A stretch of 64,000 nucleotides of DNA. It comes from an uncultured Solirubrobacterales bacterium (GTDB taxonomy: Bacteria; Actinomycetota; Thermoleophilia; Solirubrobacterales; Solirubrobacteraceae). How positions within the stretch are numbered: the stretch's first letter is position 1; each line of letters starts with the position of its first letter. A model generated the notes under the pieces. That model was not told the DNA's origin, searched no databases, and saw only the letters and a program-made list of their open reading frames with translations. The stretch covers positions 365,891-429,890 of the forward strand of contig OY970282.1 in NCBI GenBank assembly GCA_963715925.1, read 5' to 3'. Positions 1,773 through 43,137 of this stretch are shown one piece after another. The position numbers and the translations under genes are program-made.

Positions 1773-4700
1773 TCACGACCGTCGCCGGTACACCTCGCCG
1801 GGGCGCCGGTCGAGGTTGAACACATCGAACACCTTCGCTAGTCCTGCACCAGTCATCATTGCCCCATCGAGCCACGGGTCCACATCGGCTAGGGGGTGCA
1901 CTATGACCAGCAGCTCGTCGCTTCCGCCCACCTCGTGGCGCCCCGTGCTAAGCACCGGCTGCAGTCCGTCGTCGACTATCTCCCACCCGAAGTCGCGTTG
2001 GACTCCCCGGAGAGCGGCCGCCCGGATTCCTTCCCACCGATCGCGGGTCGGCGCGCCGTGCAGCAGAACTTCAAGGGTGTCAGCCGCAAGCCGCCAGTCG
2101 AGCAGTGGATGGAAGCGGAGATTAGAGAAGTCACGCAGGCACCGTGGGCATGACGCCTCACAGCCGTGGTCGCTGCCCTCCCAACGCTCATGGATCATGC
2201 ACTCCGTCTCAACTAGCAGTTCCTCAAAGTGCTGACGCTCGGCGAGCCATGTGACGAAGCCCGCACCATTCTCGATGGCATCCGCCAGGAACACCTCGGG
2301 GATGAATGCACGCACCGCCGTGGACGCAGCGTCGTCGCGCAGCATACGTAGGCCCGTCTCAAGCTCGCGGGGCTCTATGTCGAGAGTCACGGCAGCCCGG
2401 ACACGCAAGGCGAACCCGAGGCTTGTCCATGCTGCGCGCCGCGCAACGCTCAGCAGTCGCGCGCGCGGCCCGGACTGGGGATACAGGAGATGGCTGTGAC
2501 CATCATGTTGCTTGCGGGCCGGCTGCGCGACGACCGTATCGGTCTTCCACATCGCCCCAAGCACTAACTGCTGCTCGGAGCCCGATCGCACCTTGCTCGA
2601 CATGGTCACAGGGTCTAACCACCCCTCGCCGGGCTCGTTGGCAGCGGCCAGCTCAAAGCCCGCGCCCCCGCGGTCATTCACCGAGTAGATCTCCGAGTTG
2701 CCCGACGCGACCCGGAGACCGCCAGTCACGTGCCGATTCCCCAGAGAGGGAGTTACAAGCTTCGGCGATGACGCGCGCGAAAGGCGCTGTGTGACACCCT
2801 CGTATGGCTCCGCATCGTGAAACCAGCTAGTGCGGAAGCCGGTCGGCCGGGCCATAAGCTGGATACGGTAATGCTGCGGGTCACGCTCCCTGCACTCGGA
2901 GCAAACCGGATTTACCGGGTCGGGATGCAGATCGATGGTCTTGCAGGTTTCACACAGGCCGACCGATACCGTGGGCCCGCGCCCATCCAATGGCTCTGGC
3001 TGCCTGCTGCCCATCGGTCGGAAGCCCGCGAGGCCCACAACCGTATAGACCAGCTTGTCGAGCACAATCTCGTTCCCGATCGCGAACTCCGACACAGCCA
3101 CGCGCAGGTCGCGGTCGATTGCCCCTGGCGGTGGCCAATTACGTGAGTACTGCGGCGCCCGCGTGAACAGATAGCGAACCTGCGTCGGGAACCCGTACAT
3201 CGGCAAGAGTCCGTGCTCGGCCAGTCGCTGGGAAAGATCCGGCGCCTCGTCCACCAGGGCGGCCAAATGCGTGATCCGTGCCCCGAGACCATCGAGCGCC
3301 CCCTCAACAAGTTCCGCGGGGGACTTTGCGACGCGAGTAAAGTGGCTGATCTTGGCCGTGAACTCCTCAAGGGAGTCGCGGATCGCCTCGATACGCTCGA
3401 CGATCTGCCTGGCATGGACTGGCCAATGAGACGCGTCACCGAAGTGCCCATGCACGTTGAAACCGGCCTCGTCCCACCCAGTCGTCTCCTCGAGCCACGC
3501 GAAGGCACACCGCAGCGCCTCGGCACGGATGACGCGATGGAAGATCGGCTCGGAGTCTGATACGAGATACGGCGCGGGAGGCGCCGCCGCTGTCATCTCC
3601 TCGGGTGCACCGAAGTAATACTGGTCGTGCGTACGGTCGCGACAGACGGTGACAGCCAACGAGAGCGGATTATCACGCCGGCCGGCGCGGCCAACACGCT
3701 GCTGGTAGTTGTGGCGCTGGGGCGGCATGTTGCCTAGCAGGACAGCCAGTAGGTTGCCGATATCGACGCCGGCCTCCATCGTCGTTGTAACCGAGAGCAT
3801 GTCGATGCCGTTGGGTCGTGGCGGCTCGTTGCGTAGGAAGATGTCCTGAAACAGCGCCTGGCGCTTCTGGGACCGCGTCCGACCTGTCTGCCCCGTTAGC
3901 TCCTCTACCGCGAGCCGAATGACCGGCCGCTTCTCGTGCGCCAGGCGGGCGTAGTAATCGTCGGCGAGTCCGTCACGCGGGATCTTGGCATCGTCGCCAA
4001 GCGAGCTGAGACAGTGCTGGCAGACGCCTGCGTTGCCGTGCAGGTGCGCCCATCCGCAGCGCAGGCATCGCCAAGCGTACTCCACGTCGTGGCGGCGAAT
4101 GACCAGCCGGTCCAGAGCGAGCACCCAGCGTGGCGCTGGCTGCGCAGGGTCGTTGGGAAGGCTGCGTCGCGCCCAGTCGATGATGTCGTCGTAGCTGCTG
4201 TCATGGGTGGCGCAGACCTTCCTCAGCCACGATGCCAGCTCAGCTGGTGGCCCCCTGTGGACATCGCGCCCATCGCGGCCGCGCTGGTAGAAGCGGTGAA
4301 GGGAGAGGTTGCGCAGCGCGCCCCACACGACCTCCTGTGCGATCAACTCGTCGCCAAAGCCTGGCGGCGGCGTCACCTCGTGACCTGAGGCGGGTACGAC
4401 AAACCCGAAGCCAAGGGACTCGATGTCTCGCCCACCACCGGCAAAGACCGCCTTTGCGAGCTGAGCGACGGTCTGCACGTATAACGCGTCGATCTGATCC
4501 CGTGCCCGCGGATCCTCGTCACGCCGCCGTGGAGGCGACGGGGGCTCGGTGGGTGTATCGGCTGGCCATTCGAAGTGCTTCCACCAGTCGTCATCGCTGC
4601 CGTCGGACGGACGACCGGCCGGCCCTGCCGGGTTGCGGCCGATATTCACCAGATCGTTGAATACGCGCTGCCCGATCAGTGCCAGCGGCGCGTCGCCGGC

Positions 4701-7289
4701 CAGCGCCTGATCGCGGCTGGCCTCGATGCGGCGGATCTCCTCCGGATTGTCGAACACCCCGTCGTGGAGGTCCTGGAGTTGGCGCAGCAGGGGATGGCCA
4801 TCGTGGCGCAAGCGGCGCACCGTTTGCAGTTGCTCAGGATCGCGGGTGTCCAACCAGTGCAGATAGGTACGCAGGTCGTCGACGAAGGAGGTTGCCCGCT
4901 CGATCTCATGCACAACGAGTTGGCGCACCGCGTCGCGGTAGTGCGCGGTGTCCATCCCACCCGCGAGCTTGGCGGCGTCCTGACGACTGTCGCTAAATGC
5001 GATCAACCCGCGGTTGGGTTGCCCTGCGGGATAGATGCGGTGTAGTACCTCCTCCGCGAGGATCTGGCTGACGCGGTCGGCACTGGCTCGCATGCCCCAG
5101 ATCGGTGAGCGCATGCGGCGCGGGCTGGTCACGGGCAGCGCCCGCGCCGCTCCCCGAGGAACGCTGGATTTCTCCCAGTCGTCGTTGCAGTTGGGGCAGT
5201 GCGTAGGGATACCCGGGATGACCTCCAGTCGGCCGTCGCTGCCGCTGCCGCGCGGAGCGCGGATTACGTACTGCCATCCTGTGCGTTGCTCATCGAGGAG
5301 GCCACGTACCTGCCCGGCACCCGGTACGAGCACCGCCTCCACGAACGCGAACGTGAACCCGAGGTGACCCCAGGACGCCTCGATGGGTGTCTTGTCCGGC
5401 CCGGACGGCCAGTAGACCTTGTAATTGCTGTAGGTCTGGTCCGCATAGCTGCGGTCTGGGACATCCTCGAAGTTCGGGACATCGGGCAGCAGGTCGAACC
5501 CGCCGCCACGGTCGGCATCGGCGCGTGCTGCGTAGCCGCCGAGCAGGACGTCGCCACACGTCTGGCAGCACAGGAGATCGAGCACGCGCGCGCCACACTC
5601 GCACCGGATCCGCGGCTGCGCGTATAGCTTGCCGATCCTGCGATCCGCGTCCTCGAACTGCCTGTCGATCTCCGAGCAGGCTGGGTCGCAGCAAGCCCAC
5701 CAACCTGTTCCGGTGCGAAAGAAGTAGTGCGCGCGAACGTTTGGACCGTTGCCCGCAGCCATTGCCGACAGCACTCCCGTGAGCACGTGGCGCGCCTGCG
5801 GGTCGTCTGGCCGCAGGCGCTCGGCAAGCTCCTCAGCACTCGTGGCCAGAATGGCATTTCCCGTCCGGCATGCGGTGCTCACCACGTCGCCGAGCGCGGT
5901 CGTGCCAAGTTGCGCCGCGTCACTGCTGTCGCCGCCTGCCGCGACGCGTCGGCCGAGGTCAGCAAGCTGCGCCGCCTGGTCGTCATCGATCGTGGAAGCC
6001 GCTACGTCGGGCGGGAGCACCTGCCGGCCACTGAGAACCTCGAAGCGCGTGCGGTCGCGACCAAAGAACTCCTGCAAATAGTTCTTGATGTCGTCTACCT
6101 CGGCACCCAGCGACGCGCTGGCGCCAATCACAGTCAGCTGGCCATCTTGTACGTCGATGCGGTCGAGCAGCTTGCGCAACAGTAGCCCGACCTCCGTGCC
6201 GGCGGTGCCCCGGTAGGGATGCAGCTCATCGACCACAAGGAAGAAACGGTGATTACCCCGGTCGGCGTCGAGGTATCGACGCGTCTGCTCGAAGATCTCG
6301 GCCTCGTCGCGACGCATCAGCATTACGTTGAGCATCGAGAAGTTGGTGATGAGGATGTCCGGGGCGTGGTTCTTCATCTCGGGGCGCGACAGCTGCTCGG
6401 CCCCGAGAGGGCGGGGCACATACGGGCGATAGCGCCCGAGCAGCCCTGGCTCCATTCCTACCTCCTGCTCCCGCTCGGCGGTGAGGCGGTCCCGCGCGGC
6501 CGCGCTGTCCCATAGATCCTGTGCGTCGCCGTAGAAGCTCTTCAGATCCTTGTCGGGGGTCTGCCCGGTATAGCGCCCGAAGGTGAAGCGGTGGCCGTGG
6601 CGCTCGCGATTCATCCACGCTTCAGCGTGGTCGGAGTCCAACGTTGCGCGAAGTCGCACGATCTGGTCCTCGACGAGGGCATTCATCGGATACACCACCA
6701 GAGCACGCATGCCTGGATCACGGCCCGTCTCATCCTTGCGGGCCGGACGGAAGCGCCCACTCCCGCCGCGCCACCAAGCGGTTGGGGTAGCCGCCCCTGG
6801 TAGCCAGGCTCGCGACTCTCCGACCAGTTGGGTAAGTACCGGAAGCCAGAATGCCTCCGTCTTGCCCGAGCCAGTGCCACCCGTCACCACCACATCGCGG
6901 CCGTTGAGCGCATGGCGGAGACTGTCCCACTGGTGGGCGTAAAGCTTGTTCTCACCCATGAGCGGCCCGAGCAGCTCGGCAGCGTCCTCCGCCACTCCAG
7001 GTTCCAGCCCGAGGTCAGGGTGGCGGAGCGCGTCGGCAAGGCTCAGCTCGCTTGAGACGAACCCCGGAACCGGCTCGATCAGCGTCGCCGAGGCCAGCTG
7101 CTCGCCAGCCTCCAGCAGTGCGCGCCGCTCGCGGTCAACACCCCGATTGCTGACCGCGTAGTTGGACACGTAGAAATTGCGGTAGTTCTGTGTCAGCTCG
7201 TCGGCAAGAACCAGTGGGTTGGGCGGCATCACTGATCTGGGCTCGCGGCCAACGGCAATGGCGGCGTCGATCGAGTCGGCGAGCGTCAT
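1773..7289 (-). CDS. 1838-aa SF2 DExH helicase with Zn-binding inserts and C-terminal DUF1998-like domain (Druantia DruE-like)
   Basis: Q motif LYAHQ, Walker A GGTGSGKTE, Ia YPMNALVEDQ, II VVDELH, IV AFSDSRQDAA, V TTTMEAGVDIG, VI YQQRVGRAGR. Several CxxC pairs. Terminal CEASCPRCLRDFSNLRFHPLLDWRLA. Confidence 0.85.
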   Translation of the reverse strand: MTLADSIDAAIAVGREPRSVMPPNPLVLADELTQNYRNFYVSNYAVSNRGVDRERRALLEAGEQLASATLIEPVPGFVSSELSLADALRHPDLGLEPGVAEDAAELLGPLMGENKLYAHQWDSLRHALNGRDVVVTGGTGSGKTEAFWLPVLTQLVGESRAWLPGAATPTAWWRGGSGRFRPARKDETGRDPGMRALVVYPMNALVEDQIVRLRATLDSDHAEAWMNRERHGHRFTFGRYTGQTPDKDLKSFYGDAQDLWDSAAARDRLTAEREQEVGMEPGLLGRYRPYVPRPLGAEQLSRPEMKNHAPDILITNFSMLNVMLMRRDEAEIFEQTRRYLDADRGNHRFFLVVDELHPYRGTAGTEVGLLLRKLLDRIDVQDGQLTVIGASASLGAEVDDIKNYLQEFFGRDRTRFEVLSGRQVLPPDVAASTIDDDQAAQLADLGRRVAAGGDSSDAAQLGTTALGDVVSTACRTGNAILATSAEELAERLRPDDPQARHVLTGVLSAMAAGNGPNVRAHYFFRTGTGWWACCDPACSEIDRQFEDADRRIGKLYAQPRIRCECGARVLDLLCCQTCGDVLLGGYAARADADRGGGFDLLPDVPNFEDVPDRSYADQTYSNYKVYWPSGPDKTPIEASWGHLGFTFAFVEAVLVPGAGQVRGLLDEQRTGWQYVIRAPRGSGSDGRLEVIPGIPTHCPNCNDDWEKSSVPRGAARALPVTSPRRMRSPIWGMRASADRVSQILAEEVLHRIYPAGQPNRGLIAFSDSRQDAAKLAGGMDTAHYRDAVRQLVVHEIERATSFVDDLRTYLHWLDTRDPEQLQTVRRLRHDGHPLLRQLQDLHDGVFDNPEEIRRIEASRDQALAGDAPLALIGQRVFNDLVNIGRNPAGPAGRPSDGSDDDWWKHFEWPADTPTEPPSPPRRRDEDPRARDQIDALYVQTVAQLAKAVFAGGGRDIESLGFGFVVPASGHEVTPPPGFGDELIAQEVVWGALRNLSLHRFYQRGRDGRDVHRGPPAELASWLRKVCATHDSSYDDIIDWARRSLPNDPAQPAPRWVLALDRLVIRRHDVEYAWRCLRCGWAHLHGNAGVCQHCLSSLGDDAKIPRDGLADDYYARLAHEKRPVIRLAVEELTGQTGRTRSQKRQALFQDIFLRNEPPRPNGIDMLSVTTTMEAGVDIGNLLAVLLGNMPPQRHNYQQRVGRAGRRDNPLSLAVTVCRDRTHDQYYFGAPEEMTAAAPPAPYLVSDSEPIFHRVIRAEALRCAFAWLEETTGWDEAGFNVHGHFGDASHWPVHARQIVERIEAIRDSLEEFTAKISHFTRVAKSPAELVEGALDGLGARITHLAALVDEAPDLSQRLAEHGLLPMYGFPTQVRYLFTRAPQYSRNWPPPGAIDRDLRVAVSEFAIGNEIVLDKLVYTVVGLAGFRPMGSRQPEPLDGRGPTVSVGLCETCKTIDLHPDPVNPVCSECRERDPQHYRIQLMARPTGFRTSWFHDAEPYEGVTQRLSRASSPKLVTPSLGNRHVTGGLRVASGNSEIYSVNDRGGAGFELAAANEPGEGWLDPVTMSSKVRSGSEQQLVLGAMWKTDTVVAQPARKQHDGHSHLLYPQSGPRARLLSVARRAAWTSLGFALRVRAAVTLDIEPRELETGLRMLRDDAASTAVRAFIPEVFLADAIENGAGFVTWLAERQHFEELLVETECMIHERWEGSDHGCEASCPRCLRDFSNLRFHPLLDWRLAADTLEVLLHGAPTRDRWEGIRAAALRGVQRDFGWEIVDDGLQPVLSTGRHEVGGSDELLVIVHPLADVDPWLDGAMMTGAGLAKVFDVFNLDRRPGEVYRRRS

Positions 7290-8191
7290 GCGGTGGTCTG
7301 GTTAAGGGTACTGGAGATGGCCGTAGCGAGATCGTTGGGAACATTGACATATTGATCGACACCCGCGTCGACGGCCGTGGGAACATCGGCCGGCATACGT
7401 CCTGAGCACAAGCATGCTGCCCGGGCGTGCAGCGCAGGCAGTGGTGCGCGACGGTCGACGAGCAGCTTGGACTCTGCTGGCTCATATGTGATGAGTGGGT
7501 CCAGTTCCCGGTCGCGCTTCAAGAGATATGGGCCCCACTCAGGCGCAACGAGACGCCGCCACTCTCCCCCATGGAGGAGCCAGCCCTCGCGTCGGCGACC
7601 GTGAGTCTCCCAGCGCCACAGCCCACTGGTGCTCTCGGGCACATCGGGATCGGCCCACCGGGGACGCAGGTCGGCCGGGTCAATCAGGCAGTGCGCAAAG
7701 CGGTCGTCGGGCCACGCCGTCTCGGAGACCTCATCCACCCGTGCAGAGGGAAGCATCTGCCCCAAACGCAGCGCCGCGTCGGCCGTCAGCGGGATCCCAG
7801 CCGCGGCGGCAAGATGCGGCGCATCCTCGGGGTTCACCTGCAGTAGCACGGTGCTCGGCCCACGGTCCTGCGCTACGGGATCGTCGAGCTCGGCGTCGAT
7901 GTCAGCCGCGATGATGACTGCGTCGAGCTCGTGCAGCAGCCCGGCGGGACGGGCGCCGGTCAGCAGCAAACGTCCCGGAAGGCCTGGGATAGAGACCAGA
8001 CACGTCGCCGCGGTACTAAAGCGACTGGAGCCCCAATCCCACTCGACGTGGGCCAGTTGGCTCAGCGCCCGCGCCGCCGGCCCTGGCTTCAGCCCGAGGT
8101 ACCGACAGCCATCCGCGAACTGCTTGTGCGTTCCAGATCCGAGCTCCGAAACCCAGATCAGCAGCATGTCGTAGACGTCAGCCTTGGGCAT
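7286..8191 (-). CDS. Hypothetical 301-aa accessory protein of the helicase operon
   Basis: Start re-called to ATG 8191 (MPKADVYDMLLIWVSELGSG), overlapping the upstream stop by 14 bp. Its stop overlaps the helicase ATG (ATGA). Confidence 0.75.
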   Translation of the reverse strand: MPKADVYDMLLIWVSELGSGTHKQFADGCRYLGLKPGPAARALSQLAHVEWDWGSSRFSTAATCLVSIPGLPGRLLLTGARPAGLLHELDAVIIAADIDAELDDPVAQDRGPSTVLLQVNPEDAPHLAAAAGIPLTADAALRLGQMLPSARVDEVSETAWPDDRFAHCLIDPADLRPRWADPDVPESTSGLWRWETHGRRREGWLLHGGEWRRLVAPEWGPYLLKRDRELDPLITYEPAESKLLVDRRAPLPALHARAACLCSGRMPADVPTAVDAGVDQYVNVPNDLATAISSTLNQTTA

Positions 8192-10160
8192 CCGAGCTCT
8201 CATAGATAGCTCGGCCCAGCAGACGCACCCAGGCAGTACCGCCGCTTTTGTCTGCGGTGCGGTCAGCGACTTCGCCGTTCTCGTAACTGGCGATGAGGTC
8301 GAGCAGCGACTCGGATGGCTCGACGTCAACATCGGCGTAGCACACAATCTGGGCATGTCGGCCGCGTAGCAGGACATACGCGATGTCCTCAGGCCGTGGT
8401 AGCTCCCACGGCTCACCCGTGCCGATGCCCATGCGCCGATGCCAACCATCCTCGAGCGGCGGCCCGCAGGTGGTCCATGTTCCGTCGCGAAAGATCACAT
8501 CGACGAGATCCTGGTGGCGGGTCAGGAGCGATGAACGCCATGGATGATCTTCACCATCGTTGATGATCGTCGCGCCGCGGATCTTGGGTCCGCCTTCGTC
8601 GCCACGACACTGCGATGTCGCCGACGCCTTGGCCCACACTTGCCCTGCGGGCAGCCAGTGGTAGGCATCTGTGCCCTTGCGTGGACCATGCTCAGCAAGC
8701 TCGATGGTCTGCTCCCACACGTCGCCGACGGCAATGTGATGCACACCCCGGTCGGCGACGGCGGGGCGAAGGTCGAAAGGCACGCCGGGCAGCGCCTCGC
8801 CGCACTCGACGCCGTCGACCTCCACACGCGCCGGCTCGCCCAGCTCCGAAAGCAGCGCGGGCGGGTGATCGGCGAGGTAGGCACCAAAGTTCAGCGGCAG
8901 ACCTCCGACAAGGCGCACCTCCTCGACGTCCTCCGCGGGATCCGCCGAGCGCAGATGGGTCGGCAGGCCGTCCGGGTCGACCCCGAACGCCAACTGCCAG
9001 CCATGCGGCAACGGCGGTCCGCTCATCCCATCCTCCCGCGCGTTCGCGAGCAGCGTAGCGTCGCATGTCAGCACTGCCACTATCTCCGAGGTCGCTGCCG
9101 GGACGCGCCTCAGGCCCGCATCGGAGCCCTCAAAGAGCGTCGTGGTGCCCGGTAGGACGCTCACCCGCGCGCGCCGATGCGTGAGACTGATGGATACCGG
9201 GCCGAGCGTCGCCTTCTCGAGCCAGGTAAGCGGGACGCCGAACTCCTGGCCACCGCCGGGCAGCACGAGCGGGCCGTCGGGCCCGTCGGCTACAGCATCC
9301 TCGTCGAGCCCAGGCACCACCAGCCGCAGCGCGACGCGCGGACCCATGATGCGCAGATACAGATCGGCATCGAGGTGGCAGTATCCGTCCTCGTCCAGCA
9401 CGGCACCGTCCCACGCGGTCATGGCACTGCGCAGCGCGGCACGCATGACGTCCTCGAGCTCAGAGTCCTCGAGCTTTTCGCGAGTGGGCGTTGTCAGCAT
9501 GGATGCGTAGCCCCACCGGCGCAGCAGCCGTACAGGATCGTGCCCAGCCTCGAGTGCTGGTCGTGCACTGCGGAAGAAGCGGCCCAGCAGCGCACGGTCC
9601 CGGCCGCGCAGCGGCGCTTGGCCGATCGCCACACCCACAACGCTCAGGTTGCGCGGCGGCTCGCGCAGCACCAGCACGCCGCGCCTGCCCCCCTTCTCAA
9701 CTGCTAGCCAGTCCTGCAGGTCAGCGAAGAACGTCATGAGCATCTCGAAACCCGCAACACCAGGCCACTCGTCCCGCTTGGGTATGTCGAAGATGTCGCA
9801 TAAGCGCGTGTAGTAGGAGTTGGTCGATATGTTCTCGTCGCGGTCCATGCGGCTGGCCGCAACGACCGCCAACGCCAGGCCCGACATGAAGCTGGGCAGC
9901 GGGCGTGGGCGCGAGAGCCGCCTCCAGCGACGGCCGTGGTTGACGATCCCGCGGACGCCGCCCTCGAATGTGATCTCGTAAGAGCCCTTCAGGCATTCCG
10001 CAAGCGCCGTGACCGCATCCCCTCGAATCTCAAGCCGTGCCGCCGCATGTTCGACAGCGAGGTCATCGCAGGAAAGCAAGACAGAAAACAGGCCCTCGAT
10101 TTGGCGCTCGGGTAGTAGAAGGTCCAGGAGCGCCGCGTTCCAGTCCTCAACGGTAGCCAT
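8178..10160 (-). CDS. Hypothetical 660-aa accessory protein (helical N-terminus, beta-rich C-terminal half)
   Basis: Start re-called to ATG 10160 (MATVEDWNAALL), in a TGATG overlap with the nuclease stop. N-terminus LALAVVAASRM...NSYYTRL...DRALLGRFF. Confidence 0.75.
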   Translation of the reverse strand: MATVEDWNAALLDLLLPERQIEGLFSVLLSCDDLAVEHAAARLEIRGDAVTALAECLKGSYEITFEGGVRGIVNHGRRWRRLSRPRPLPSFMSGLALAVVAASRMDRDENISTNSYYTRLCDIFDIPKRDEWPGVAGFEMLMTFFADLQDWLAVEKGGRRGVLVLREPPRNLSVVGVAIGQAPLRGRDRALLGRFFRSARPALEAGHDPVRLLRRWGYASMLTTPTREKLEDSELEDVMRAALRSAMTAWDGAVLDEDGYCHLDADLYLRIMGPRVALRLVVPGLDEDAVADGPDGPLVLPGGGQEFGVPLTWLEKATLGPVSISLTHRRARVSVLPGTTTLFEGSDAGLRRVPAATSEIVAVLTCDATLLANAREDGMSGPPLPHGWQLAFGVDPDGLPTHLRSADPAEDVEEVRLVGGLPLNFGAYLADHPPALLSELGEPARVEVDGVECGEALPGVPFDLRPAVADRGVHHIAVGDVWEQTIELAEHGPRKGTDAYHWLPAGQVWAKASATSQCRGDEGGPKIRGATIINDGEDHPWRSSLLTRHQDLVDVIFRDGTWTTCGPPLEDGWHRRMGIGTGEPWELPRPEDIAYVLLRGRHAQIVCYADVDVEPSESLLDLIASYENGEVADRTADKSGGTAWVRLLGRAIYESSDAQG

Positions 10161-13075
10161 CAGCCTGCGAGCTCGGGCACCCAGGGCGTCTGGCGTTGCA
10201 GGCTGTGGGCGGTCGCATGTTGGTCCTTGAGGTTCTGGTCGATCCAGGTCGCGAGCTCGCGTTGCGCGGCGGGCTCCCCGTGCACGATCCCGAATACCGT
10301 CGCATCGTGCGCTCGCGTCATACGCTCGGCGAAGGCGTGTAGATCGGACGTCGGTGCGTGCGCTGAGAGGCCAACGCGCTGGAATAGACACTTGATCTTC
10401 GGGTTCTCGTCACCGAGGCGGATCGTGTCGCCAGTCGTGAGCCGATTGATGCCTGGAATGCCACCGGCAGCACGAGGCATGTAGCCGGTGAAGACAACTC
10501 CGTGCTGCTTGTGGCGTACCATCTCGCGCAGGAAGGCGCGCGACCAGCCTCCAGACAGCATCGCGGGACTGGCGATGATGTAACCCGGCTTCTCACTGCT
10601 GAGGATGTCCAGTATGGCTTCATCGAGCGTCCCGCTGTTGGAGAGCCACTCGTTGGGGTTGCGGACGGAGGGAAACGACCCGATGGCAGCCCAGCCACCG
10701 TTACGGGCCTGGCTGTATTGGTCGTAGACATCCATGATCTTGTTACCCATGCCCGCAACATAGAGTGGCCCGTCGGGCATCTCGCGGCCGCGTCGGGCCT
10801 CGATAATCTTCACCAACTCCTGTGTACGCCCGAGGCTGAAGCTGGGCAGGAGCAGGAACCCCCCCTCTCCAACCGTCTTCATCGCGTAGTCCGAGAGGCG
10901 CTGGGCAGCCTGCTCGCGACCATGAAGATTACGGCGACCCTGTTGCAGCATCTGGTCCGGTACGCCGTAGGTCGACTCCATGATCACCAAGTCGGCGAGC
11001 TCGATCTCGTCTAACCCCCACGTCGGGAGAGTGTGCTGGGGGTCCGCGATCGGGCCTAGGTCGCCTGTGTAGAGCAATGTGTGGCCCGACTCCTCCTCGG
11101 TAACGTGGATCGCGCAGCTACCGAGTACGTGTGCGACGGGCAGGTAGCGGACGAGCAGAGTTGTATCCCCTACGCGGAACTTGGCGCCCTTCTCGGCTGG
11201 CCGGACGCGCTCCATGATGTTCTTGACGTCTTGCTGCGTATACGCCGGCCGCATGGAGCCCTCGTAGTAATCAGAGTCCGACACCGCCATCGCCGTCATC
11301 CGCTCCTCGCGGGAATGCTGGATCTTCGCCGAGTCCAAGAGCATGATCTCAGCCAGCTGGATGGTGGGCGGGGACATCCACACCGGGACGTCGCGCTCAG
11401 AGGTGGCCTCCAAAGCGTCCAGGATGGTCGGCAGCGAGCCGACGTGGTCGACATGAGCATGACTGATCAGCACGCCGTCGAGCGCCTCGGTGGGCACGCG
11501 AAAGTGGAAGGGCTGAGCGTTTGGGTCGCCGTACTCCCCCTTGACTCGCTGGCCGGCATCCAAGAGTACGCTGTAGCCGTTGTGGGTTTGGACGAGGATC
11601 GCGCTTCCCCCAACCTCCTCAGCACCACCTAGGGCACGGATCGTGAACGGCTGGCTGTGTCGGCGGGTCCGCCGCCGGCGCGGCCGCGATGCCTCGGCCG
11701 GTTCCGATTGATCCGCTATCGTAGCGGCCTCCTCGGCCGCACTGTCAGGGGGTTGAGGCGTCGCCTCGTCGATCTCCGGAGTGGCGATCTCCGCCACCTT
11801 CGCGACGGGGATCTCGGCGGCGCCGCCGGGGACAGCCGGCACTGGTGTGACCGCCTGGCTGAGTTCGCTGAATACAGCGGTCAGCCGCAGCAGGTGTTGG
11901 TCGTCTGGCAGCGCTGCGCCCGACGCGATGCGTTCAGCCGCCATGGAAGTCGCCTGGCCGACGACAGGAGCAAGTGCGCGGAATAGAGAGTGGGGGGAGT
12001 CGACCGGCAGCAGTTCCTCGGGGCCAGTCGGGCGCGCGCGCTGAGACTGGCTGATCTGTCGCAGGCGCTCCGCCTGGCGATCGGCCTGCTCTTGCGCCTC
12101 GAGGCGCAAGCGGCGCTCACCGTCGCGCTCGGATCGCAGCTCGTCCAGGTCAGCCTGGAGGCGATCCATCTCCCCAGCGCGCTCCTCCAGCTCGCGCAAC
12201 CGCTCGCGGTCGGCCTTGGCGGCACTGAGTTGGCCATCCAACGAGGCGATCCGCTTTGCGTTCTCGGCCAGCTTGGCCCGCGCTCCCGCCAGCTGAGCGT
12301 CGGCGTCTCCGGCACGCTGCTGAGCGGTTTCGAGCTCATTCAAGGATGCCTCCAGCGTGCCGACCTTCTTCTCGGCAGCAGCGAGTTGCTTGTCGCGATC
12401 CTTAATATCGCGCTCGAGTGCCTTGACGAGCTCCTCGAGCCCATGGATTCGGTGGCGCTCGGCATCCTCGTCCTCTGTGCCATCGCCTCCGCGCGCGGCA
12501 AGCCGCTCGGCAAGCTCGTCCTCGATTAGTTCGAGCTCCTCCCGGTCATTCGTGTGCAGCATGTACACCGCGGCGGCCACGAACTCCTCGGGGCAGGCGG
12601 AGCGGGAGTCAAGGAACGCGGCGGGATCATCGGCAAGCGCCACCAGCGTCGCATCCGCAATCCGCGCTTTGCGGTTGTCGTAGTGATGGAGCACCGACTG
12701 CAGTGCGATGTCCCACAGCGTACGCTCGCGGCGCAGCAGCTGGGCGAGCGCGCGAGCGGTCTGGCTCGACGGTCCGTAGTTAGCCTTGCGGGTCACTCCC
12801 GCGCGGATGAGCAGGCGCCGCTGAGTCGAGCGGTCCAGTCCAGTGCGCCAGGCTTTCTTCGCGGCTGGGAGGACGGCAATGTGCCGCAGCACCGTGTCGG
12901 GGATCTCGTCAGGGGCCGGCGTGTCGGGCTGAAACTTCTCGAGGTGCTCGCGAAGATCGGCAGCGCGAGCGACTATGTCGCTATCGACGTTTCCGTTGCG
13001 ACCACCGGCCGGCGGCGCATCCGAGGTCGTAGTAGTCAGGTCGTCTCGCTCGTGGAGAGTCACTTCACAGACCAC
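10160..13075 (-). CDS. beta-CASP metallo-beta-lactamase-fold nuclease (CPSF73/YSH1-like) with N-terminal helical domain and long coiled coil
   Basis: LGGAEEVGGS, LLDAG, SHAHVDH (HxHxDH), AHVLGS, YTGD, MESTYG, SFSLGRTQE, LSAHA, IVHGE. About 150 residues of heptad-like E/K/R/A/L sequence. GTG start uncertain. Confidence 0.88.
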   Translation of the reverse strand: MVCEVTLHERDDLTTTTSDAPPAGGRNGNVDSDIVARAADLREHLEKFQPDTPAPDEIPDTVLRHIAVLPAAKKAWRTGLDRSTQRRLLIRAGVTRKANYGPSSQTARALAQLLRRERTLWDIALQSVLHHYDNRKARIADATLVALADDPAAFLDSRSACPEEFVAAAVYMLHTNDREELELIEDELAERLAARGGDGTEDEDAERHRIHGLEELVKALERDIKDRDKQLAAAEKKVGTLEASLNELETAQQRAGDADAQLAGARAKLAENAKRIASLDGQLSAAKADRERLRELEERAGEMDRLQADLDELRSERDGERRLRLEAQEQADRQAERLRQISQSQRARPTGPEELLPVDSPHSLFRALAPVVGQATSMAAERIASGAALPDDQHLLRLTAVFSELSQAVTPVPAVPGGAAEIPVAKVAEIATPEIDEATPQPPDSAAEEAATIADQSEPAEASRPRRRRTRRHSQPFTIRALGGAEEVGGSAILVQTHNGYSVLLDAGQRVKGEYGDPNAQPFHFRVPTEALDGVLISHAHVDHVGSLPTILDALEATSERDVPVWMSPPTIQLAEIMLLDSAKIQHSREERMTAMAVSDSDYYEGSMRPAYTQQDVKNIMERVRPAEKGAKFRVGDTTLLVRYLPVAHVLGSCAIHVTEEESGHTLLYTGDLGPIADPQHTLPTWGLDEIELADLVIMESTYGVPDQMLQQGRRNLHGREQAAQRLSDYAMKTVGEGGFLLLPSFSLGRTQELVKIIEARRGREMPDGPLYVAGMGNKIMDVYDQYSQARNGGWAAIGSFPSVRNPNEWLSNSGTLDEAILDILSSEKPGYIIASPAMLSGGWSRAFLREMVRHKQHGVVFTGYMPRAAGGIPGINRLTTGDTIRLGDENPKIKCLFQRVGLSAHAPTSDLHAFAERMTRAHDATVFGIVHGEPAAQRELATWIDQNLKDQHATAHSLQRQTPWVPELAG

Positions 13076-13324
13076 CCGCAGGATGAAACCGCCATTCCGG
13101 CTACAGACACTATCGTGACGAGCGGCTTGGAGCCGTCCCGTGCGTAGTGCATACGTCCAATTGATGCCGCACCTTCCGAACAGGTGGTCGGGCCATGTCG
13201 GGAAACTCCAGCCCCACCTCCTCGACGGGTCGCATCAACACCGCCAGTGCGCGGCGCGCAGAGCACGAGGACAGCTTCGTGCCTTCCGCTTCATCGCCTC
13301 GACCATCGCTATCTGCGAAAAGTC

Positions 13325-13344
13325 TCGTTCCGCGTTTCGTTCCG
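13325..13344. repeat. Direct repeat TCGTTCCG x2 (12-bp period), possible integrase arm-type sites
   Basis: Copies at 13325-13332 and 13337-13344, about 65 bp from the tRNA 3' end. Confidence 0.35.
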
Positions 13345-13408
13345 TGTCCGCGATCCGTCGCCAGCTCGATCATCGCAAAAGGTACCGATTTCTAGGCAAT
13401 TCCTGAAG

Positions 13409-13482
13409 GGTGAGCGAGGGGACTCGAACCCCCGACCGCCGGGACCACAACCCGGAGCTCTACCAGCTGAGCTACGCCCACC
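13409..13482 (-). tRNA. tRNA-His (GTG); CCA not encoded
   Basis: Reverse complement GGTGGGCGTAGCTCAGCTGGTAGAGCTCCGGGTTGTGGTCCCGGCGGTCGGGGGTTCGAGTCCCCTCGCTCACC shows G-1, C73 discriminator, D-loop AGCTGGTA, anticodon loop TTGTGGT and T-loop TTCGAGT. Confidence 0.97.
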
Positions 13483-13544
13483 AGGCTGGGCTCCGAAGTG
13501 TAGCGGCGGGTCTGTGGACCCTGCGGGCGCCGCACCGAGCCCGC

Positions 13545-14288
13545 TCACGCCCTGCGCATCCAGACTTGCGCGGCCTGCCGATCTCCGGTCCAACTCTCGG
13601 GCGCCCGCAGGACGAACGCCGTGTCCTCCGCGCCCACCGGCGCGGGGGCGGCCTCCGGTCCGGTGGCGCGCAGCAGCACAATCAGGCGCGCGCGTAGCAG
13701 CGAGGCGACCGCGCGTTCTGCGAGGCCCAGGGCGTCGCTCGCGCTCGCCTGGCCGCTCGGGTCGCGGGTGGCAGCCAGCTCCCACGCGCGGTGCAGTGGG
13801 ATCTGCTCGAGGCCCATCTGCGCGAGCAGCTCAAGGCCAAGGGAGTCCGCCTTCAGGTCCGTCGCGCCGCCGCCCGCTGGTCCCTGCACCGCCGCGGGAG
13901 CCGATGCGTCGCTCGCTCCTGGCGCCCTCCCTGCCACCTCTGCTCCGCCCGACGGGGCCGGTGGACCCTGCGCCTCGCCCCCACCACTCGCGAGGGCCTC
14001 CCCTGCCGCCGCCAGCAGCTGCGCCGTCACGTCCTTGCTCTGGCGCTGCGCGGTGCGCCAGCCGCGGCCCATCGAGAGCTGCGCCGGGGGGATGGGCAGT
14101 CCTTCGAGCACCGTGAGCCGCGCGTGGCGCGGGTCCCACTTGAGCTCTCCCAGCTCGAATGGCCGGTCGGCCACCCACGGCCCCAGCACCGTGGCCCGCA
14201 GCTCCTCCCCGCTCAGGTTGAAGCGGCACACGTTGCGCGGGAAGTGGCGCAGCTCCACGTGGTAGACGGTTTCACCCAGGGTCCCCAA
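13545..14288 (-). CDS. Hypothetical protein
   Basis: GC3-biased ORF overlapping the ridA stop. Protein-like N-terminus (YHVELRHFPRNVCRFNL), Ala/Pro-rich linker. Confidence 0.65.
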   Translation of the reverse strand: MGTLGETVYHVELRHFPRNVCRFNLSGEELRATVLGPWVADRPFELGELKWDPRHARLTVLEGLPIPPAQLSMGRGWRTAQRQSKDVTAQLLAAAGEALASGGGEAQGPPAPSGGAEVAGRAPGASDASAPAAVQGPAGGGATDLKADSLGLELLAQMGLEQIPLHRAWELAATRDPSGQASASDALGLAERAVASLLRARLIVLLRATGPEAAPAPVGAEDTAFVLRAPESWTGDRQAAQVWMRRA

Positions 14289-14685
14289 GCGCCACCACCG
14301 CGTCGATCTCCACCAGTGCCCCGCGCGGCAACGCCGCCACCCCGACCGTCACCCGCGCCGGCGGCGCCGCGGCGAAGAACTCGGCGTACACCTCGTTCAC
14401 CTCCCCGAAGCGCTCCAGGTCGGTCATGTACACCGTCAGGCGCACCGCCTGCTCGAGCGTGGCCCCTGACGCGGCACACACCGCCTGCAGGTTCTCCAGG
14501 CACTGTCGCGCCTGCTCCGCCGCGCTCGCGCCCACCAGCTCGCCGCTCGCCGGGTCGAGCGGGATCTGGCCCGAGCAGAACAGCAGCCCCCCCGCCGCTC
14601 GCAGGTCGACCCTCACCGCGTGGCTGTACGGGCCGATCGCCGCGGGCGCGCCCGCGGCCGTCACGGTGTGGCGAGAGCGGTCCAC
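14272..14685 (-). CDS. ridA: RidA/YjgF/UK114 enamine-imine deaminase
   Basis: AIGPYSHAV, LFCSGQIPLDP, PPARVTVGVAALPRGALVEIDAV. C-terminal part of track ORF 14272..17526; GTG at 14685. Confidence 0.93.
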   Translation of the reverse strand: MDRSRHTVTAAGAPAAIGPYSHAVRVDLRAAGGLLFCSGQIPLDPASGELVGASAAEQARQCLENLQAVCAASGATLEQAVRLTVYMTDLERFGEVNEVYAEFFAAAPPARVTVGVAALPRGALVEIDAVVALGDPG

Positions 14686-14752
14686 GCGCCGGAGCCTACT
14701 ACCGGCTCTCCCCCGGCCCCGGCGCCACGGCCGAGCACGCGAGGGAGCCCGA

Positions 14753-15035
14753 GGACGGAACCTCGGCGGGACCTCGGCTGGCCGGCGTCCCCGCACGGCG
14801 GCGCGTCGTCGGGACGGAACCTCGGCGGGACCTCGGCTGGCCGGCGTCCCCGCACGGCGGCGCGTCGTCGGGACGGAACCTCGGCGGGACCTCGGCTGGC
14901 CGGCGTCCCCGCACGATGGCGCGTCGTCGGGACGGAACCTCGGCGGGACCTCGGCTGGCCGGCGTCCCCGCACGATGGCGCGTCGCCGGGACGGAACCTC
15001 GGCTAGCCGGCGTCCCCCACGGTGGCGCGTCGTCG
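14753..15035. repeat. 59-bp intergenic tandem repeat: 4 full copies plus 1 internally deleted copy
   Basis: Unit GGACGGAACCTCGGCGGGACCTCGGCTGGCCGGCGTCCCCGCAC(GGC/GAT)GGCGCGTCG(T/C)CG starts at 14753, 14812, 14871, 14930 and 14989. Confidence 0.95.
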
Positions 15036-15060
15036 CGCCCGATCGGCTAGATTCCAACTG

Positions 15061-17055
15061 GTGCGACCCTCCGTCAGGAAGCTCGCCGTCGCATTCCTGA
15101 CGGCCACGATCATCGCCGTGGGCGCACTTCCCGCGTCCGCCGGAGCGCAGATTGCGTGGGGCCCGTGCGGCACCAGCAACGACTTCGCCTGCGGCCACCT
15201 CACCGTCCCGCTCGATCCCTCCGGGGGTACGCCGGGAACGATCACGCTTGCGCTCCGCCGCCACCGCGCGCCTGTGGGAGAAGCGAGCTCCGCGGTGATC
15301 GCGCTCGCCGGCGGCCCCGGGCAGTCCGCAATCCCGTTCGCCGAAGACTTCACCGAACTGCTCGGGCCGATCCTCGCCACGCGCGACTTGATCGTCTTCG
15401 ACCAACGCGGCACCGGCAACTCGCACCCGCTCTCCTGCCACGCCTTGGAACACCCTAGCGTCCCCCGCTCCGCCGGGCAGCTGATCACTGCCTGCGCCAA
15501 CCAAATCGGGACCGAACGCGCCTTCTACACAACCCCCGACACCGTCGCCGACATCGAGGCGATCCGTCGCGCGGGGGGATATGAAAAGCTCGTCCTCTAC
15601 GGCACCTCCTACGGCACGAAGGTCGCCGAGGAGTATGCCCAGGAGTACCCCCAACACGTCGAAGCGCTGGTGCTCGACTCGGTCGTGCCGCCCACCGGGC
15701 CCGAACCGCTCGACCGCTCGACGTTCGAAGCGGTGCCCCGCATCCTGCGCCAGCTGTGCGAGTACCACCTGTGCGCCCACATCACCCCCAACCCCGTCGG
15801 CGACCTCGCGCGGCTCGTGCGGCGCATGAGTCGGGGCCCGCTGCGCGGGCGCTACATCGCCGACCACGGCCATCCCCACACCATCCCCATCTCCTCCAAC
15901 GAGCTCCTCGACATCCTGCTCGCGGGCGACTTCGACCCGATCGTGCGCGCCGAATTCCCCGCCGCGGTGCGCGCCGCGGCCGACGGCGACACGGCGGCGC
16001 TCGCGCGGCTGCTCGTGCGCGCCTCGGGAGGCGAAAGCGAAGAAGGTGAAGGGATCGACGTGCCGCTCTACTACGCCACCACCTGCGAAGAGGAGGACTT
16101 CCCGTGGAGCCGCACGGCGAGCCCCTCCGAACGCCTCGCGCAAGTGGCCGCCTCGATCAGGGCGCTGCCCGCCGGCTCGATCGGCCCGTTCGCACCCGCC
16201 AACATGCTCGACTTCAGCGACGCCTCCTCGTGCGCCTTCTGGCCCTTCGCGACGCCCGCGCCGCCGTCCGTGCCGGCCACGATGCCCGACGTCCCCACGC
16301 TGATCCTCTCCGGCGCCGACGACCTGCGCACCCCCACCGCGAACGCACGCGCGGTTGCCGCGCAGATCCCCGGCTCGCACCTGGTGGTGGTGCCCAACAC
16401 CGGCCACTCGGTGCTCGGGACCGAGCCCACCCACTGCGCGCGCAAGGCGCTGCTGGCGATGTTCGCCGACGACGCGATCGCGCCCTGCCCCGCTGGGCCG
16501 CCCTCGCCCTTCCTGCGCCCCACTCCCCTGCCGCCCGAGCGGCTCGCCGACGTCTCCCCGGCCCATGGCTACCACGGCCGGGCGGGACGGACGCTGCAGG
16601 CGGTCAAGCTCACGCTCGCCGACTTCTCCCGCCAGCTCCTGCTGCAGCTCCTCGAAACCGCCGGCGAGACCGGCGGGCGCTCCGCCAGCCTCATCTCGCT
16701 CAACAGCGGCGGCCTGCGCGCCGGGTGGGTACAGCTCACCAAAGGCGGCCTGCGCTTCCACCGCTACTCCTACGTGCCCGGCGTGACCATCTCCGGCGCC
16801 GTCAAGGCCGAAAGCATCGTGCTGCGCATCGGCGGGTCCGCCGCGGCGCACGGCACGCTGCGGCTGGGAGCCCGCAAAGCCCTGGTCGGAACGTTGGCTG
16901 GGCAGCACGTCCACCTCCGCCCGAGCTCCACGGCGAGTGCCGCTATTGTCGGTGCCGATGCGCAGGCGAGCCCCGATCTCGGTCTTGGCGGCTCTGCTGC
17001 CCGCACTATTGTTCGCCAGCTCGCCGTCGTCCTCGGCCGGCTCCCCTGGCTCTGA
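15061..17055 (+). CDS. Secreted alpha/beta hydrolase (TAP-like peptidase family)
   Basis: Signal peptide, LAGGPGQ, FDQRGTG, GTSYG nucleophile, LSGADDLRTP, TGHSVLG. Confidence 0.88.
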   Translation: MRPSVRKLAVAFLTATIIAVGALPASAGAQIAWGPCGTSNDFACGHLTVPLDPSGGTPGTITLALRRHRAPVGEASSAVIALAGGPGQSAIPFAEDFTELLGPILATRDLIVFDQRGTGNSHPLSCHALEHPSVPRSAGQLITACANQIGTERAFYTTPDTVADIEAIRRAGGYEKLVLYGTSYGTKVAEEYAQEYPQHVEALVLDSVVPPTGPEPLDRSTFEAVPRILRQLCEYHLCAHITPNPVGDLARLVRRMSRGPLRGRYIADHGHPHTIPISSNELLDILLAGDFDPIVRAEFPAAVRAAADGDTAALARLLVRASGGESEEGEGIDVPLYYATTCEEEDFPWSRTASPSERLAQVAASIRALPAGSIGPFAPANMLDFSDASSCAFWPFATPAPPSVPATMPDVPTLILSGADDLRTPTANARAVAAQIPGSHLVVVPNTGHSVLGTEPTHCARKALLAMFADDAIAPCPAGPPSPFLRPTPLPPERLADVSPAHGYHGRAGRTLQAVKLTLADFSRQLLLQLLETAGETGGRSASLISLNSGGLRAGWVQLTKGGLRFHRYSYVPGVTISGAVKAESIVLRIGGSAAAHGTLRLGARKALVGTLAGQHVHLRPSSTASAAIVGADAQASPDLGLGGSAARTIVRQLAVVLGRLPWL

Positions 17056-42165: not shown

Positions 42166-43137
42166 TCACCACCACACAGTGGAGTCGAGGTTCTCGATCT
42201 CGTCCACCGGCAGCGTGTAGATCCCGCTGGAGAGGTACTTCCAGCCGTCGTCCGCGACGATGAACACCACGTTGCCCTCGTCGAGCTCCCCGGCGATGCG
42301 CACCGCCACGCGGGCGATCGCGCCCGAGGAGACGCCGGCGAATACGCTCTCCTCGTCGAGCAGCTTGCGCGTCCACAGGATCGCGTCGCGGTTGGTCACG
42401 AAGATCTTGCGGTCCAGTAGTGCGAGGTCGATGATCGGCGGGATGAAGCCGTCGTCGAGCGAGCGCAGCCCCTGCACCGGCTCGCCCTGCATCGGCTCCG
42501 CCGCGACGATCTTCACGGCGTCCCCGAAGGTCTCCTTCAGGCGGCGGCCGTTGCCCATCAACGTGCCCCCCGTCCCGAGGCCCGCGACGAACGCCGACAC
42601 CTCGTCGAGCTCCTCGAGGATCTCCAGGGCCGTGCCGTTGTAGTGCGCGCCCGGGTTGGCGGGGTTGCCGTACTGGTAGGGCATGTAGTAGGAGGAGTCC
42701 GCCTGCGCCATCTTCAGGGCCTTCTCGACCGCTCCGTTGGAGCCCTTGGAGCCCTCGGAGTACACGATCTGCGCGCCGAACATCTTCAGCAGCTGCGTGC
42801 GCTCCGGGGTCACGTTCTCAGGCATCACCACCTTCAGGCGGTAGCCCTTGCGCGCGCAAATCATCGCCAGCGAGATCCCCGTGTTGCCCGAGGTCGGCTC
42901 GAGGATCGTCTGCCCCGGGCTGAGCGCCCCCTTCTCCTCGGCGTCCTCGATCAGCGCACGCGCCACCCGGTCCTTGACCGAGCCCGTCGGGTTGCGCGAC
43001 TCGAGCTTCGCCCAGATCCGCACCCCCGGCTTCGGCGAGAGGCGCGGCAGCTCGATCAGCGGCGTGTTGCCGATCGACTGCACGATGTCGCCGTAGCGAC
43101 CCCCGCAGGGCTTGTTGCGCAGACCCTCCGCAGCCAT
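42166..43137 (-). CDS. cysM: PLP-dependent cysteine synthase (CysM-like)
   Basis: IGNTPL, KLESRNPTGSVKDR, EPTSGNTG, GLGTGGT. Confidence 0.88.
   Translation of the reverse strand: MAAEGLRNKPCGGRYGDIVQSIGNTPLIELPRLSPKPGVRIWAKLESRNPTGSVKDRVARALIEDAEEKGALSPGQTILEPTSGNTGISLAMICARKGYRLKVVMPENVTPERTQLLKMFGAQIVYSEGSKGSNGAVEKALKMAQADSSYYMPYQYGNPANPGAHYNGTALEILEELDEVSAFVAGLGTGGTLMGNGRRLKETFGDAVKIVAAEPMQGEPVQGLRSLDDGFIPPIIDLALLDRKIFVTNRDAILWTRKLLDEESVFAGVSSGAIARVAVRIAGELDEGNVVFIVADDGWKYLSSGIYTLPVDEIENLDSTVWW

Follow-up and report, generated by a model that had tools for sequence, protein, structure and literature searches.

Druantia type IV is defined by Payne et al. (2021, PMC8565338) as three genes, DruE-DruF-DruL. 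Druantia type II (DruM-DruF-DruG-DruE) has been placed together with type I under the name "Type IV CoCoNuT"; both are counted among the coiled-coil nuclease (CoCoNuT) systems, for which RNA targeting is predicted, and the nuclease domain of their DruE is predicted to be inactive (PMC12458937). In type III, DruE is reported to be itself a helicase-nuclease that acts on replication intermediates containing single-stranded DNA (ssDNA) (bioRxiv 10.64898/2026.05.12.724681). All mechanistic papers on Druantia that we found deal with type III, in which DruE has an active nuclease of its own. Here, we describe a gene for a 971-amino-acid beta-CASP nuclease in a 64,000-nucleotide stretch of contig OY970282.1 (positions 365,891 to 429,890, forward strand; assembly GCA_963715925.1) from an uncultured Solirubrobacterales bacterium; this whole stretch is referred to below as the window. 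With a probability of roughly 70%, we assign the gene product to an actinobacterial variant of Druantia type IV, in which it would serve as a dedicated nuclease subunit and whose four genes encode, in order, the beta-CASP protein, DruF, DruL, and DruE. This four-gene variant is previously undescribed. The assignment is based on intact catalytic motifs, overlapping genes, a gene order that persists down to approximately 40% identity, congruent trees, location in mobile or defense islands, and a patchy distribution.

The nuclease gene is coupled to druF, druL, and druE

Downstream of the nuclease gene, PADLOC profiles identified adjacent, co-directional, and overlapping matches to DruF, DruL, and DruE, the gene set by which Druantia type IV is recognized (Table 1). 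The nuclease TGA and the DruF ATG share a single nucleotide (ctgATGg), and the end of DruL overlaps the start of DruE by 4 nt (ATGA); the four genes are presumably transcribed together. The helicase scored nearly as well against the PADLOC DruE2 models (1,387 bits) as against DruE4; it contains Pfam DEAD and Helicase_C domains, and it matched PDB helicase 9wae (6e-138) as well as a PDB entry for YprA. This DruF-DruL-DruE context is the key to the identity of the nuclease, and the original prediction had not recognized the downstream genes as those of Druantia type IV. The beta-CASP protein is not itself a PADLOC component and matched no PADLOC model other than weak coiled-coil ones. No paper combining Druantia with beta-CASP was found in the literature searched, and among the literature matches listed, type IV and DruL occur only in the PADLOC paper. 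A scan for promoters and terminators upstream of the nuclease gene found nothing.

As a separate observation, DruF4 matches the N-terminal part of the long PADLOC DruF2 profiles, and DruL4 matches their C-terminal end (approximately positions 806 to 1028 of 1,011 to 1,030). Because the two match opposite ends of the same profiles, the type IV DruF and DruL pair looks like a split long DruF2, and not like a split DruH.

The four-gene order and gene trees are conserved

Just 15 full-length homologs of the nuclease were recovered when 5.8 billion proteins were searched by word index. Genomic context was examined for 13 loci, and the order beta-CASP-DruF-DruL-DruE was found in 9 of them, including relatives with only 39 to 42% identity. 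Two close relatives (L005 and L006; 85 to 96% identity) carry the same four genes. Among five distant relatives looked up, all five nuclease genes are followed by genes for proteins of 643 to 675 and approximately 302 to 332 amino acids, and four (L092, L094, L185, and L186) are then followed by a gene for a protein of approximately 1,810 to 1,822 amino acids. PADLOC confirmed DruF4, DruL4, and DruE4 in L092 and L093. Identity between the window and L092/L094 is 39 to 42% for the nuclease, approximately 35% for DruF, 44 to 45% for DruL, and 54% for DruE. We had considered that the Druantia linkage might be one recent accident; the same operon at 39 to 42% identity rules this out.

Several copies appear damaged. 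In L093, several small open reading frames (ORFs) break up DruE, the final gene (11500-16975), and in L006, DruL lies in three frames, through either a frameshift or an assembly error (14786-15945). In L001 (85% identity), the nuclease gene is followed by no more of druF than its first 110 nt and then by a PIN gene, which makes this locus a decayed copy of the operon (12901-13044).

A quick method was used to build two trees, one of the nuclease domain, with generic beta-CASP proteins as the root, and one of DruE. In the former, the family is monophyletic with respect to the generic proteins, and among the members sampled for context, those linked to Druantia cover the deep branches. The four members without Druantia genes form one derived clade (Shimodaira-Hasegawa-like approximate likelihood ratio test [SH-aLRT], 96) that is sister to the clade of the window. 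Read most simply, this pattern reflects an ancestral linkage to Druantia and a single loss. In the DruE tree, one clade (support, 100) unites all seven DruE proteins that have a beta-CASP partner and leaves out the six that lack one. Its internal topology equals that of the nuclease tree; the four genes have thus been inherited as a unit. The original prediction had stated that its view of the protein would fall if homologs with the same N terminus occurred mostly as solitary housekeeping genes; with 9 of 13 contexts in Druantia operons and all solitary copies in one derived clade, that outcome did not arise.

The nuclease domain resembles RNA-cleaving beta-CASP enzymes

Pfam placed Lactamase_B_2/Lactamase_B at residues 488 to 727 (above the gathering score), Beta-Casp at 751 to 867 (45.9 bits; cut-off, 27.7), and RMMBL at 892 to 949 (33.3 bits; cut-off, 21.6). 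All four metallo-beta-lactamase (MBL) motifs were located (D506 in LLDAGQ, H539xH541xD543H544, H649, and D672), as were beta-CASP motifs A (E700), B (H906), and C (H932, in IVHGE at nucleotides 10274-10288). These seven catalytic motifs are invariant in 18 aligned homologs that are 39 to 86% identical to the window protein. On this sequence evidence, the family belongs to the beta-CASP subfamily of MBL-fold nucleases, with predicted metal-dependent nuclease activity, and the window protein is an intact member kept by purifying selection.

The best NCBIfam models were those for aCPSF1 (6.5e-51) and for Cas14 of type VII CRISPR-Cas (3.2e-50), with scores far below the family cut-offs (aCPSF1 equivalog TIGR03675, 173 bits against 580; Cas14 model NF045584, 171 bits against 800). 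The RNase J model TIGR00649 gave only a marginal N-terminal match (E value of approximately 1e-4; 19.5 bits against 400), and there was a weak partial match to the ligase-associated DNA damage exonuclease TIGR04122 (5.7e-7). A Pfam search for a KH domain in the window protein found none; its N terminus is an unrelated helical domain. Against PDB sequences, the ranking was PH1404 (an aCPSF1; 3.4e-29), TTHA0252, FttA, CPSF3/CPSF73, Ysh1, IntS11, and Cas14; RNase J appeared at just approximately 1e-4, and no SNM1, Artemis, or Apollo chain reached an E value of 1e-3. Every solved relative with a significant match is a beta-CASP enzyme that cleaves RNA.

Motif C is typically His in RNA-processing beta-CASP enzymes, such as CPSF73 and RNase J, and Val in DNA-acting members, such as Artemis and SNM1. 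The window protein has His at this position together with an RMMBL domain above its cut-off, both features of the RNA-acting branch. The PDB relatives, the motif C His, and the RMMBL domain thus place the domain in the RNA-cleaving branch, by correlation. The original prediction had called the domain RNA type from motif C, and homology concurs. Provided that the protein belongs to Druantia, RNA is, by a small degree, the likelier substrate; candidates would be transcripts of the phage and RNA within R-loops or transcription complexes.

The strongest competing explanation accepts that the nuclease is part of Druantia and has it cut DNA, namely, ssDNA, forks, or flaps exposed by DruE, comparable to the phospholipase D (PLD) nuclease of type III DruE. 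DruE-type helicases resemble the DNA helicases YprA and MrfA in PADLOC, NCBIfam, and the PDB YprA match, and the partial TIGR04122 match points the same way. Against DNA stand the RNA-cleaving solved relatives, the lack of any SNM1-type chain in the PDB sequence search, the invariant motif C His, and the RMMBL score. We consider a DNA substrate possible but somewhat unlikely.

Solitary homologs and Druantia loci without the nuclease

In 4 of the 13 contexts (L002, L003, L087, and L088), the nuclease retains all catalytic motifs and Druantia genes are absent. Three of these loci are syntenic. L002, L003, and L088 (55 to 62% identity) carry a LuxR/GerE-type gene directly upstream; in L087, a STAS gene lies upstream, and the gene following the nuclease, examined as a candidate DruF, proved not to be one. 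The solitary nuclease and its regulator may be a separate two-gene module. The GerE partner of this clade is a helix-turn-helix protein of 218 to 250 amino acids encoded near a GAF histidine kinase/response regulator, and the GerE-linked loci also lie near a convergent gene for a trypsin-like protease. Independently of the nuclease locus, window positions 42166-43098 share 79% DNA identity with a PALP/STAS gene beside the solitary homolog in L002, a metagenome-assembled genome (MAG) of a Solirubrobacter sp. This likeness suggests fairly close relatives; synteny does not extend further out.

An alternative that such loci raise is that the nuclease forms a module of one gene, either a defense gene in its own right or an RNase with a regulatory or stress role, that travels beside Druantia without working with it. 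The intact solitary homologs next to LuxR/GerE or STAS regulators and the existence of three-gene Druantia type IV loci would fit this explanation. We regard it as improbable, given the stop/start overlap with druF, the conservation of gene order across approximately 40% identity in 9 of 13 contexts, the congruence with the DruE tree, the confinement of solitary copies to a single derived clade, and the L001 nuclease that is still followed by the first 110 nt of druF.

The genomic distribution was surveyed further in several collections. When the family alignment was used to scan 185,579 species genomes, the only matches were generic beta-CASP proteins of approximately 450 amino acids, which align over the nuclease domain alone at 23 to 33% identity and none of which adjoins DruE; this collection thus holds no close full-length relative. 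A metagenome scan with the generic patterns HAH[IV]DH[VI]G and GGA.E.GGS gave only generic beta-CASP proteins among the matches listed, and no full-length homolog was found in the plasmid collection. A DruL-like match was present in 4 of 400 other genomes of the phylum. At two of these four loci (L101 and L103), a DruM-like C-5 cytosine methyltransferase occupies the position of the nuclease, upstream of DruF.

A number of observations weigh against the assignment to Druantia or limit its reach. None of the four DruL-positive phylum loci has the nuclease nearby, and plasmids of Deinococcus and cyanobacteria carry type IV-like loci of three genes with unrelated genes upstream, so the nuclease is not needed for Druantia in general. 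Since a clade with intact motifs exists without DruF, DruL, and DruE, the nuclease can presumably work alone, and its N-terminal domain and coil cannot serve docking only. The contexts number 13, all come from metagenomes or MAGs, and they were picked by availability. Type IV is itself defined by gene association (PMC8565338), and we found no experimental test of it in the literature searched. The nuclease domain was modeled poorly, with a predicted local distance difference test (pLDDT) score below 50 over much of its length. Concerning the substrate, motif C and homology forecast RNA by correlation alone, and type III Druantia is reported to engage ssDNA-containing replication intermediates (bioRxiv 10.64898/2026.05.12.724681).

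Finally, a lineage housekeeping RNA-processing enzyme, that is, an RNase J or CPSF-like paralogue, would agree with the label "Cft2 family RNA processing exonuclease" given to homologs by the Joint Genome Institute (JGI) and with the proximity of the domain to aCPSF1 and CPSF73, but it is largely refuted by the bona fide RNase J elsewhere in the genome (541 bits; cut-off, 400), the absence of the N-terminal domain from the 400 other phylum genomes, including 8 of the same family, the lack of close full-length relatives among the species genomes, the scores far under equivalog cut-offs, and the location in a lower-GC island bounded by attachment (att) sites next to tRNA-His, all of which bear out the original view that this is not a housekeeping RNase J.

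A family-specific helical domain and a long helical rod precede the nuclease domain

The deposited genome annotation starts the protein at a GTG at position 13063, 4 codons downstream of the start in Table 1, which yields 967 amino acids. Leader residues 1 to 38 are poorly conserved, and conservation among homologs begins near residue 39. The original prediction had described a helical N terminus, a coiled coil at 12040-12480, a linker with an arginine-rich patch, and an MBL/beta-CASP domain at 10165-11650 with IVHGE as its last motif; Pfam domains, AlphaFold2 helices, and the located motifs bear out this layout, and the positions agree with Table 1 within a few bases. The linker is shorter in the solitary clade and longer in Druantia-linked members, and the arginine-rich patch ahead of the nuclease is kept in the family.

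When residues 31 to 200 were modeled alone from 11 sequences, the N-terminal domain was predicted to be all-helical (pLDDT, 90.3; predicted template modeling score, 0.86). Structure prediction and Foldseek had been suggested as a check of this domain, and the confident helical fold found no relative: Foldseek gave no significant match in the PDB (best E value, 1.5; template modeling [TM] score of at most 0.22) and none in BFVD (best E value, 0.6), and the domain profile matched no PDB sequence. A profile search of 1.84 billion representative proteins returned 33 proteins (about 33 clusters). The full-length matches that were checked all carry a C-terminal beta-CASP domain (9/9), and in a panel of 401 phylum genomes that includes 8 of the same family, the profile matched only the genome of the window (1/401). 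Thus, as far as these profile matches go, the domain is seen only in fusion to beta-CASP and is family specific. Identity over this domain is 50% in the solitary clade and approximately 30% in long forms. Many of the proteins with this domain are 1,070 to 1,150 amino acids long, with approximately 160 extra N-terminal residues (for example, L092 10001-10540); these have no Pfam match and could be winged-helix-like. The extra residues were compared with the GerE-type partner of the solitary clade and are not homologous to it.

The segment at residues 200 to 345 contains no proline across 146 residues, and the full-length AlphaFold2 model places long helices at 203 to 253 and 259 to 345. Hydrophobic periodicity of 3.5 residues exceeded that of shuffled sequences for 203 to 253 (P of approximately 0.006) and for 200 to 345 (P of approximately 0.02); that of 259 to 345 alone was not above shuffles. 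Hidden Markov model searches gave weak matches to the coiled-coil regions of SMC, LmuB, and JetC. On this modeling evidence, a long helical rod is well supported, and its supercoiling is only predicted. Accordingly, the part of the original coiled-coil claim that stands is the long, proline-free helices with a heptad signal, and the supercoil is unproven. The full-length model is poor overall (pLDDT, 57.5), such that a hairpin and a straight rod cannot be told apart from it, and Foldseek matches with this model merely repeat the beta-CASP homology.

Table 1. Positions of the nuclease, its domains, and neighboring features in the window
Feature	Position	Strand	Remarks
AbiEi-like antitoxin	270-842	plus	same island
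DUF6036 nucleotidyltransferase	839-1516	plus	same island
DruE, 1838 aa, YprA-like superfamily 2 (SF2) helicase	1773..7289	minus	PADLOC DruE4, 1544 bits, full length
DruL, 301 aa	7286..8191	minus	PADLOC DruL4, 4.5e-39; overlaps DruF end by 14 nt
DruF, 660 aa	8178..10160	minus	PADLOC DruF4, 1.1e-33
Beta-CASP/coiled-coil nuclease gene	10160..13075	minus	uninterrupted ORF, 971 aa from GTG at 13075
MBL + beta-CASP + RMMBL nuclease domain, residues 476-971	10163..11650	minus	motifs 1-4, A, B, and C intact
Basic patch RPRRRRTRR, residues 464-472	11660..11686	minus	directly ahead of nuclease domain
Ala/Pro/Glu-rich disordered linker, residues 409-463	11687..11851	minus	
Small helical region behind coil, residues 361-408	11852..11995	minus	conserved across nuclease family
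Long helical/coiled-coil segment, residues 200-345	12041..12478	minus	AlphaFold2 helices, heptad periodicity, proline-free
N-terminal all-helical domain, residues 39-195	12491..12961	minus	profile search and AlphaFold2
Attachment site (tRNA-His 3' 44-45 nt)	13408-13452		direct repeat at genome 362795-362839
tRNA-His	13408..13481	minus	330 nt upstream of nuclease gene, same strand

The operon lies in an island bounded by a tRNA-His attachment site

The two copies of the att repeat lie 16.5 kb apart, the distal one 3.1 kb before the start of the window, and delimit a 16.5-kb island (Table 1). GC content is approximately 65% across the island stretch compared to approximately 72% beyond it. Besides the operon, the island carries an AbiEi-like/DUF6036 pair, which is of the toxin-antitoxin or abortive-infection type, and a gene of the HTH_17 type that resembles Xis. 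The copy of the island in the window yielded no integrase and therefore looks immobilized. Among the scanned ORFs of the island, no cas genes were found; a CRISPR array was not searched for. Just past the tRNA, the C-terminal 120 residues of a 1,084-amino-acid frame match RidA/L-PSP (14272-14660, minus strand; 2.7e-35); this frame is probably a high-GC artifact enclosing a short RidA gene, with which the chromosomal genes begin on this side of the tRNA.

Related loci have comparable surroundings. L006, from another assembly, contains a near-identical 11.7-kb segment that starts inside the same tRNA fragment, beside an integrase fragment, and is followed by TIR and AbiEii genes. L186 has integrase, Xis, and ArdC neighbors, and L092 has a type I restriction-modification HsdR neighbor. 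Adjoining this HsdR gene in L092 is a divergent unit of three genes (3244-9466, minus strand) that encode DUF6361, a 604-amino-acid protein, and a 1,064-amino-acid DEAD/ResIII helicase and that probably constitute another defense system.

DISCUSSION

Were the nuclease a subunit of Druantia, DruE together with DruF and DruL would find phage nucleic acid and unwind it or translocate on it. The N-terminal domain and the coiled-coil rod would hold one or two beta-CASP domains on the Dru complex, or dimerize them, and the nuclease would cut the exposed single strand, with RNA somewhat likelier than ssDNA. The original prediction had proposed an oligomerizing RNase that its coiled coil recruits or activates, which is likewise conjectural. 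If a separate protein provided the nuclease in trans, this would agree with the published prediction that the DruE nuclease domain is inactive in types I and II, whose DruE helicases are the typed ones closest to that of the window. A more specific version is an RNA-directed, co-transcriptional defense in which DruEFL loads at phage transcription sites or R-loops and the tethered nuclease cuts nascent or displaced RNA in the manner of FttA or Integrator, the N-terminal domain being a sensor or docking element. We put this forward tentatively and consider it unlikely as a whole; if true, it would offer the first concrete handle on the target of Druantia outside type III.

Throughout this lineage, the helicase core comes with an intact nuclease of the RNA type that is encoded by a gene of its own, which names a candidate effector. 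To our knowledge, Cas14 is the sole well-known beta-CASP nuclease in prokaryotic immunity; should membership in Druantia hold true, the protein described here would be a second case of a CPSF73-like beta-CASP nuclease in this role. It would also be a concrete example for the proposed link of Druantia type I- and II-like systems to RNA-targeting coiled-coil nuclease systems. The N-terminal domain is, in addition, a confidently predicted fold without a relative in the PDB or the viral structure library.

Among described beta-CASP enzymes, RNase J shares the MBL/beta-CASP fold and gives only a marginal N-terminal match to the window protein. The enzymes aCPSF1/FttA, CPSF73, IntS11, and TTHA0252 are its best sequence or fold matches and share all motifs, the motif C His, and RMMBL. 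It differs from aCPSF1 in score (173 bits versus 580) and in having no KH domains, and from RNA 3'-end beta-CASP enzymes in its family-specific helical domain, its rod of approximately 145 residues, its disordered acidic linker, and a gene that is rare and island borne. Cas14 (type VII CRISPR-Cas, PDB 8yhd) has a homologous domain (3.2e-50 with NCBIfam; 2.6e-18 with the PDB chain), and both proteins would be effectors brought to their target by other proteins, as proposed here for the window nuclease. Cas14, however, is separated by score (171 bits versus 800) and by a different N-terminal half, and no cas genes occur among the island ORFs scanned; its partner is a CRISPR RNA (crRNA) complex, whereas those of the window nuclease are a helicase and two uncharacterized proteins.

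Among defense systems, CoCoNuT offers a resemblance only, in the long coil upstream of a nuclease domain in a defense operon containing a helicase (DruE). Pfam detected neither a GTPase/AAA domain of the McrB/CnuB type nor an McrC domain in the four proteins, a divergent CnuB-like fold in DruF being beyond the reach of this test, and the operon thus differs from CoCoNuT, which has a CnuB/McrB-like GTPase and a CnuC/McrC partner. Druantia type II is similar in its DruE2 score and in the shared theme of a coiled coil, a nuclease, and a YprA helicase with predicted RNA targeting; it differs in that the operon in the window has no DruM cytosine methyltransferase, carries the beta-CASP gene in first position, and uses a nuclease of the beta-CASP type. 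The greatest likeness is to Druantia type IV, with which the locus shares the DruE4, DruF4, and DruL4 matches, the co-directional, overlapping genes, and the island location. Whereas type IV has been defined without a recognized nuclease, the operon described here has as its conserved, translationally coupled first gene one for a 971-amino-acid beta-CASP protein.

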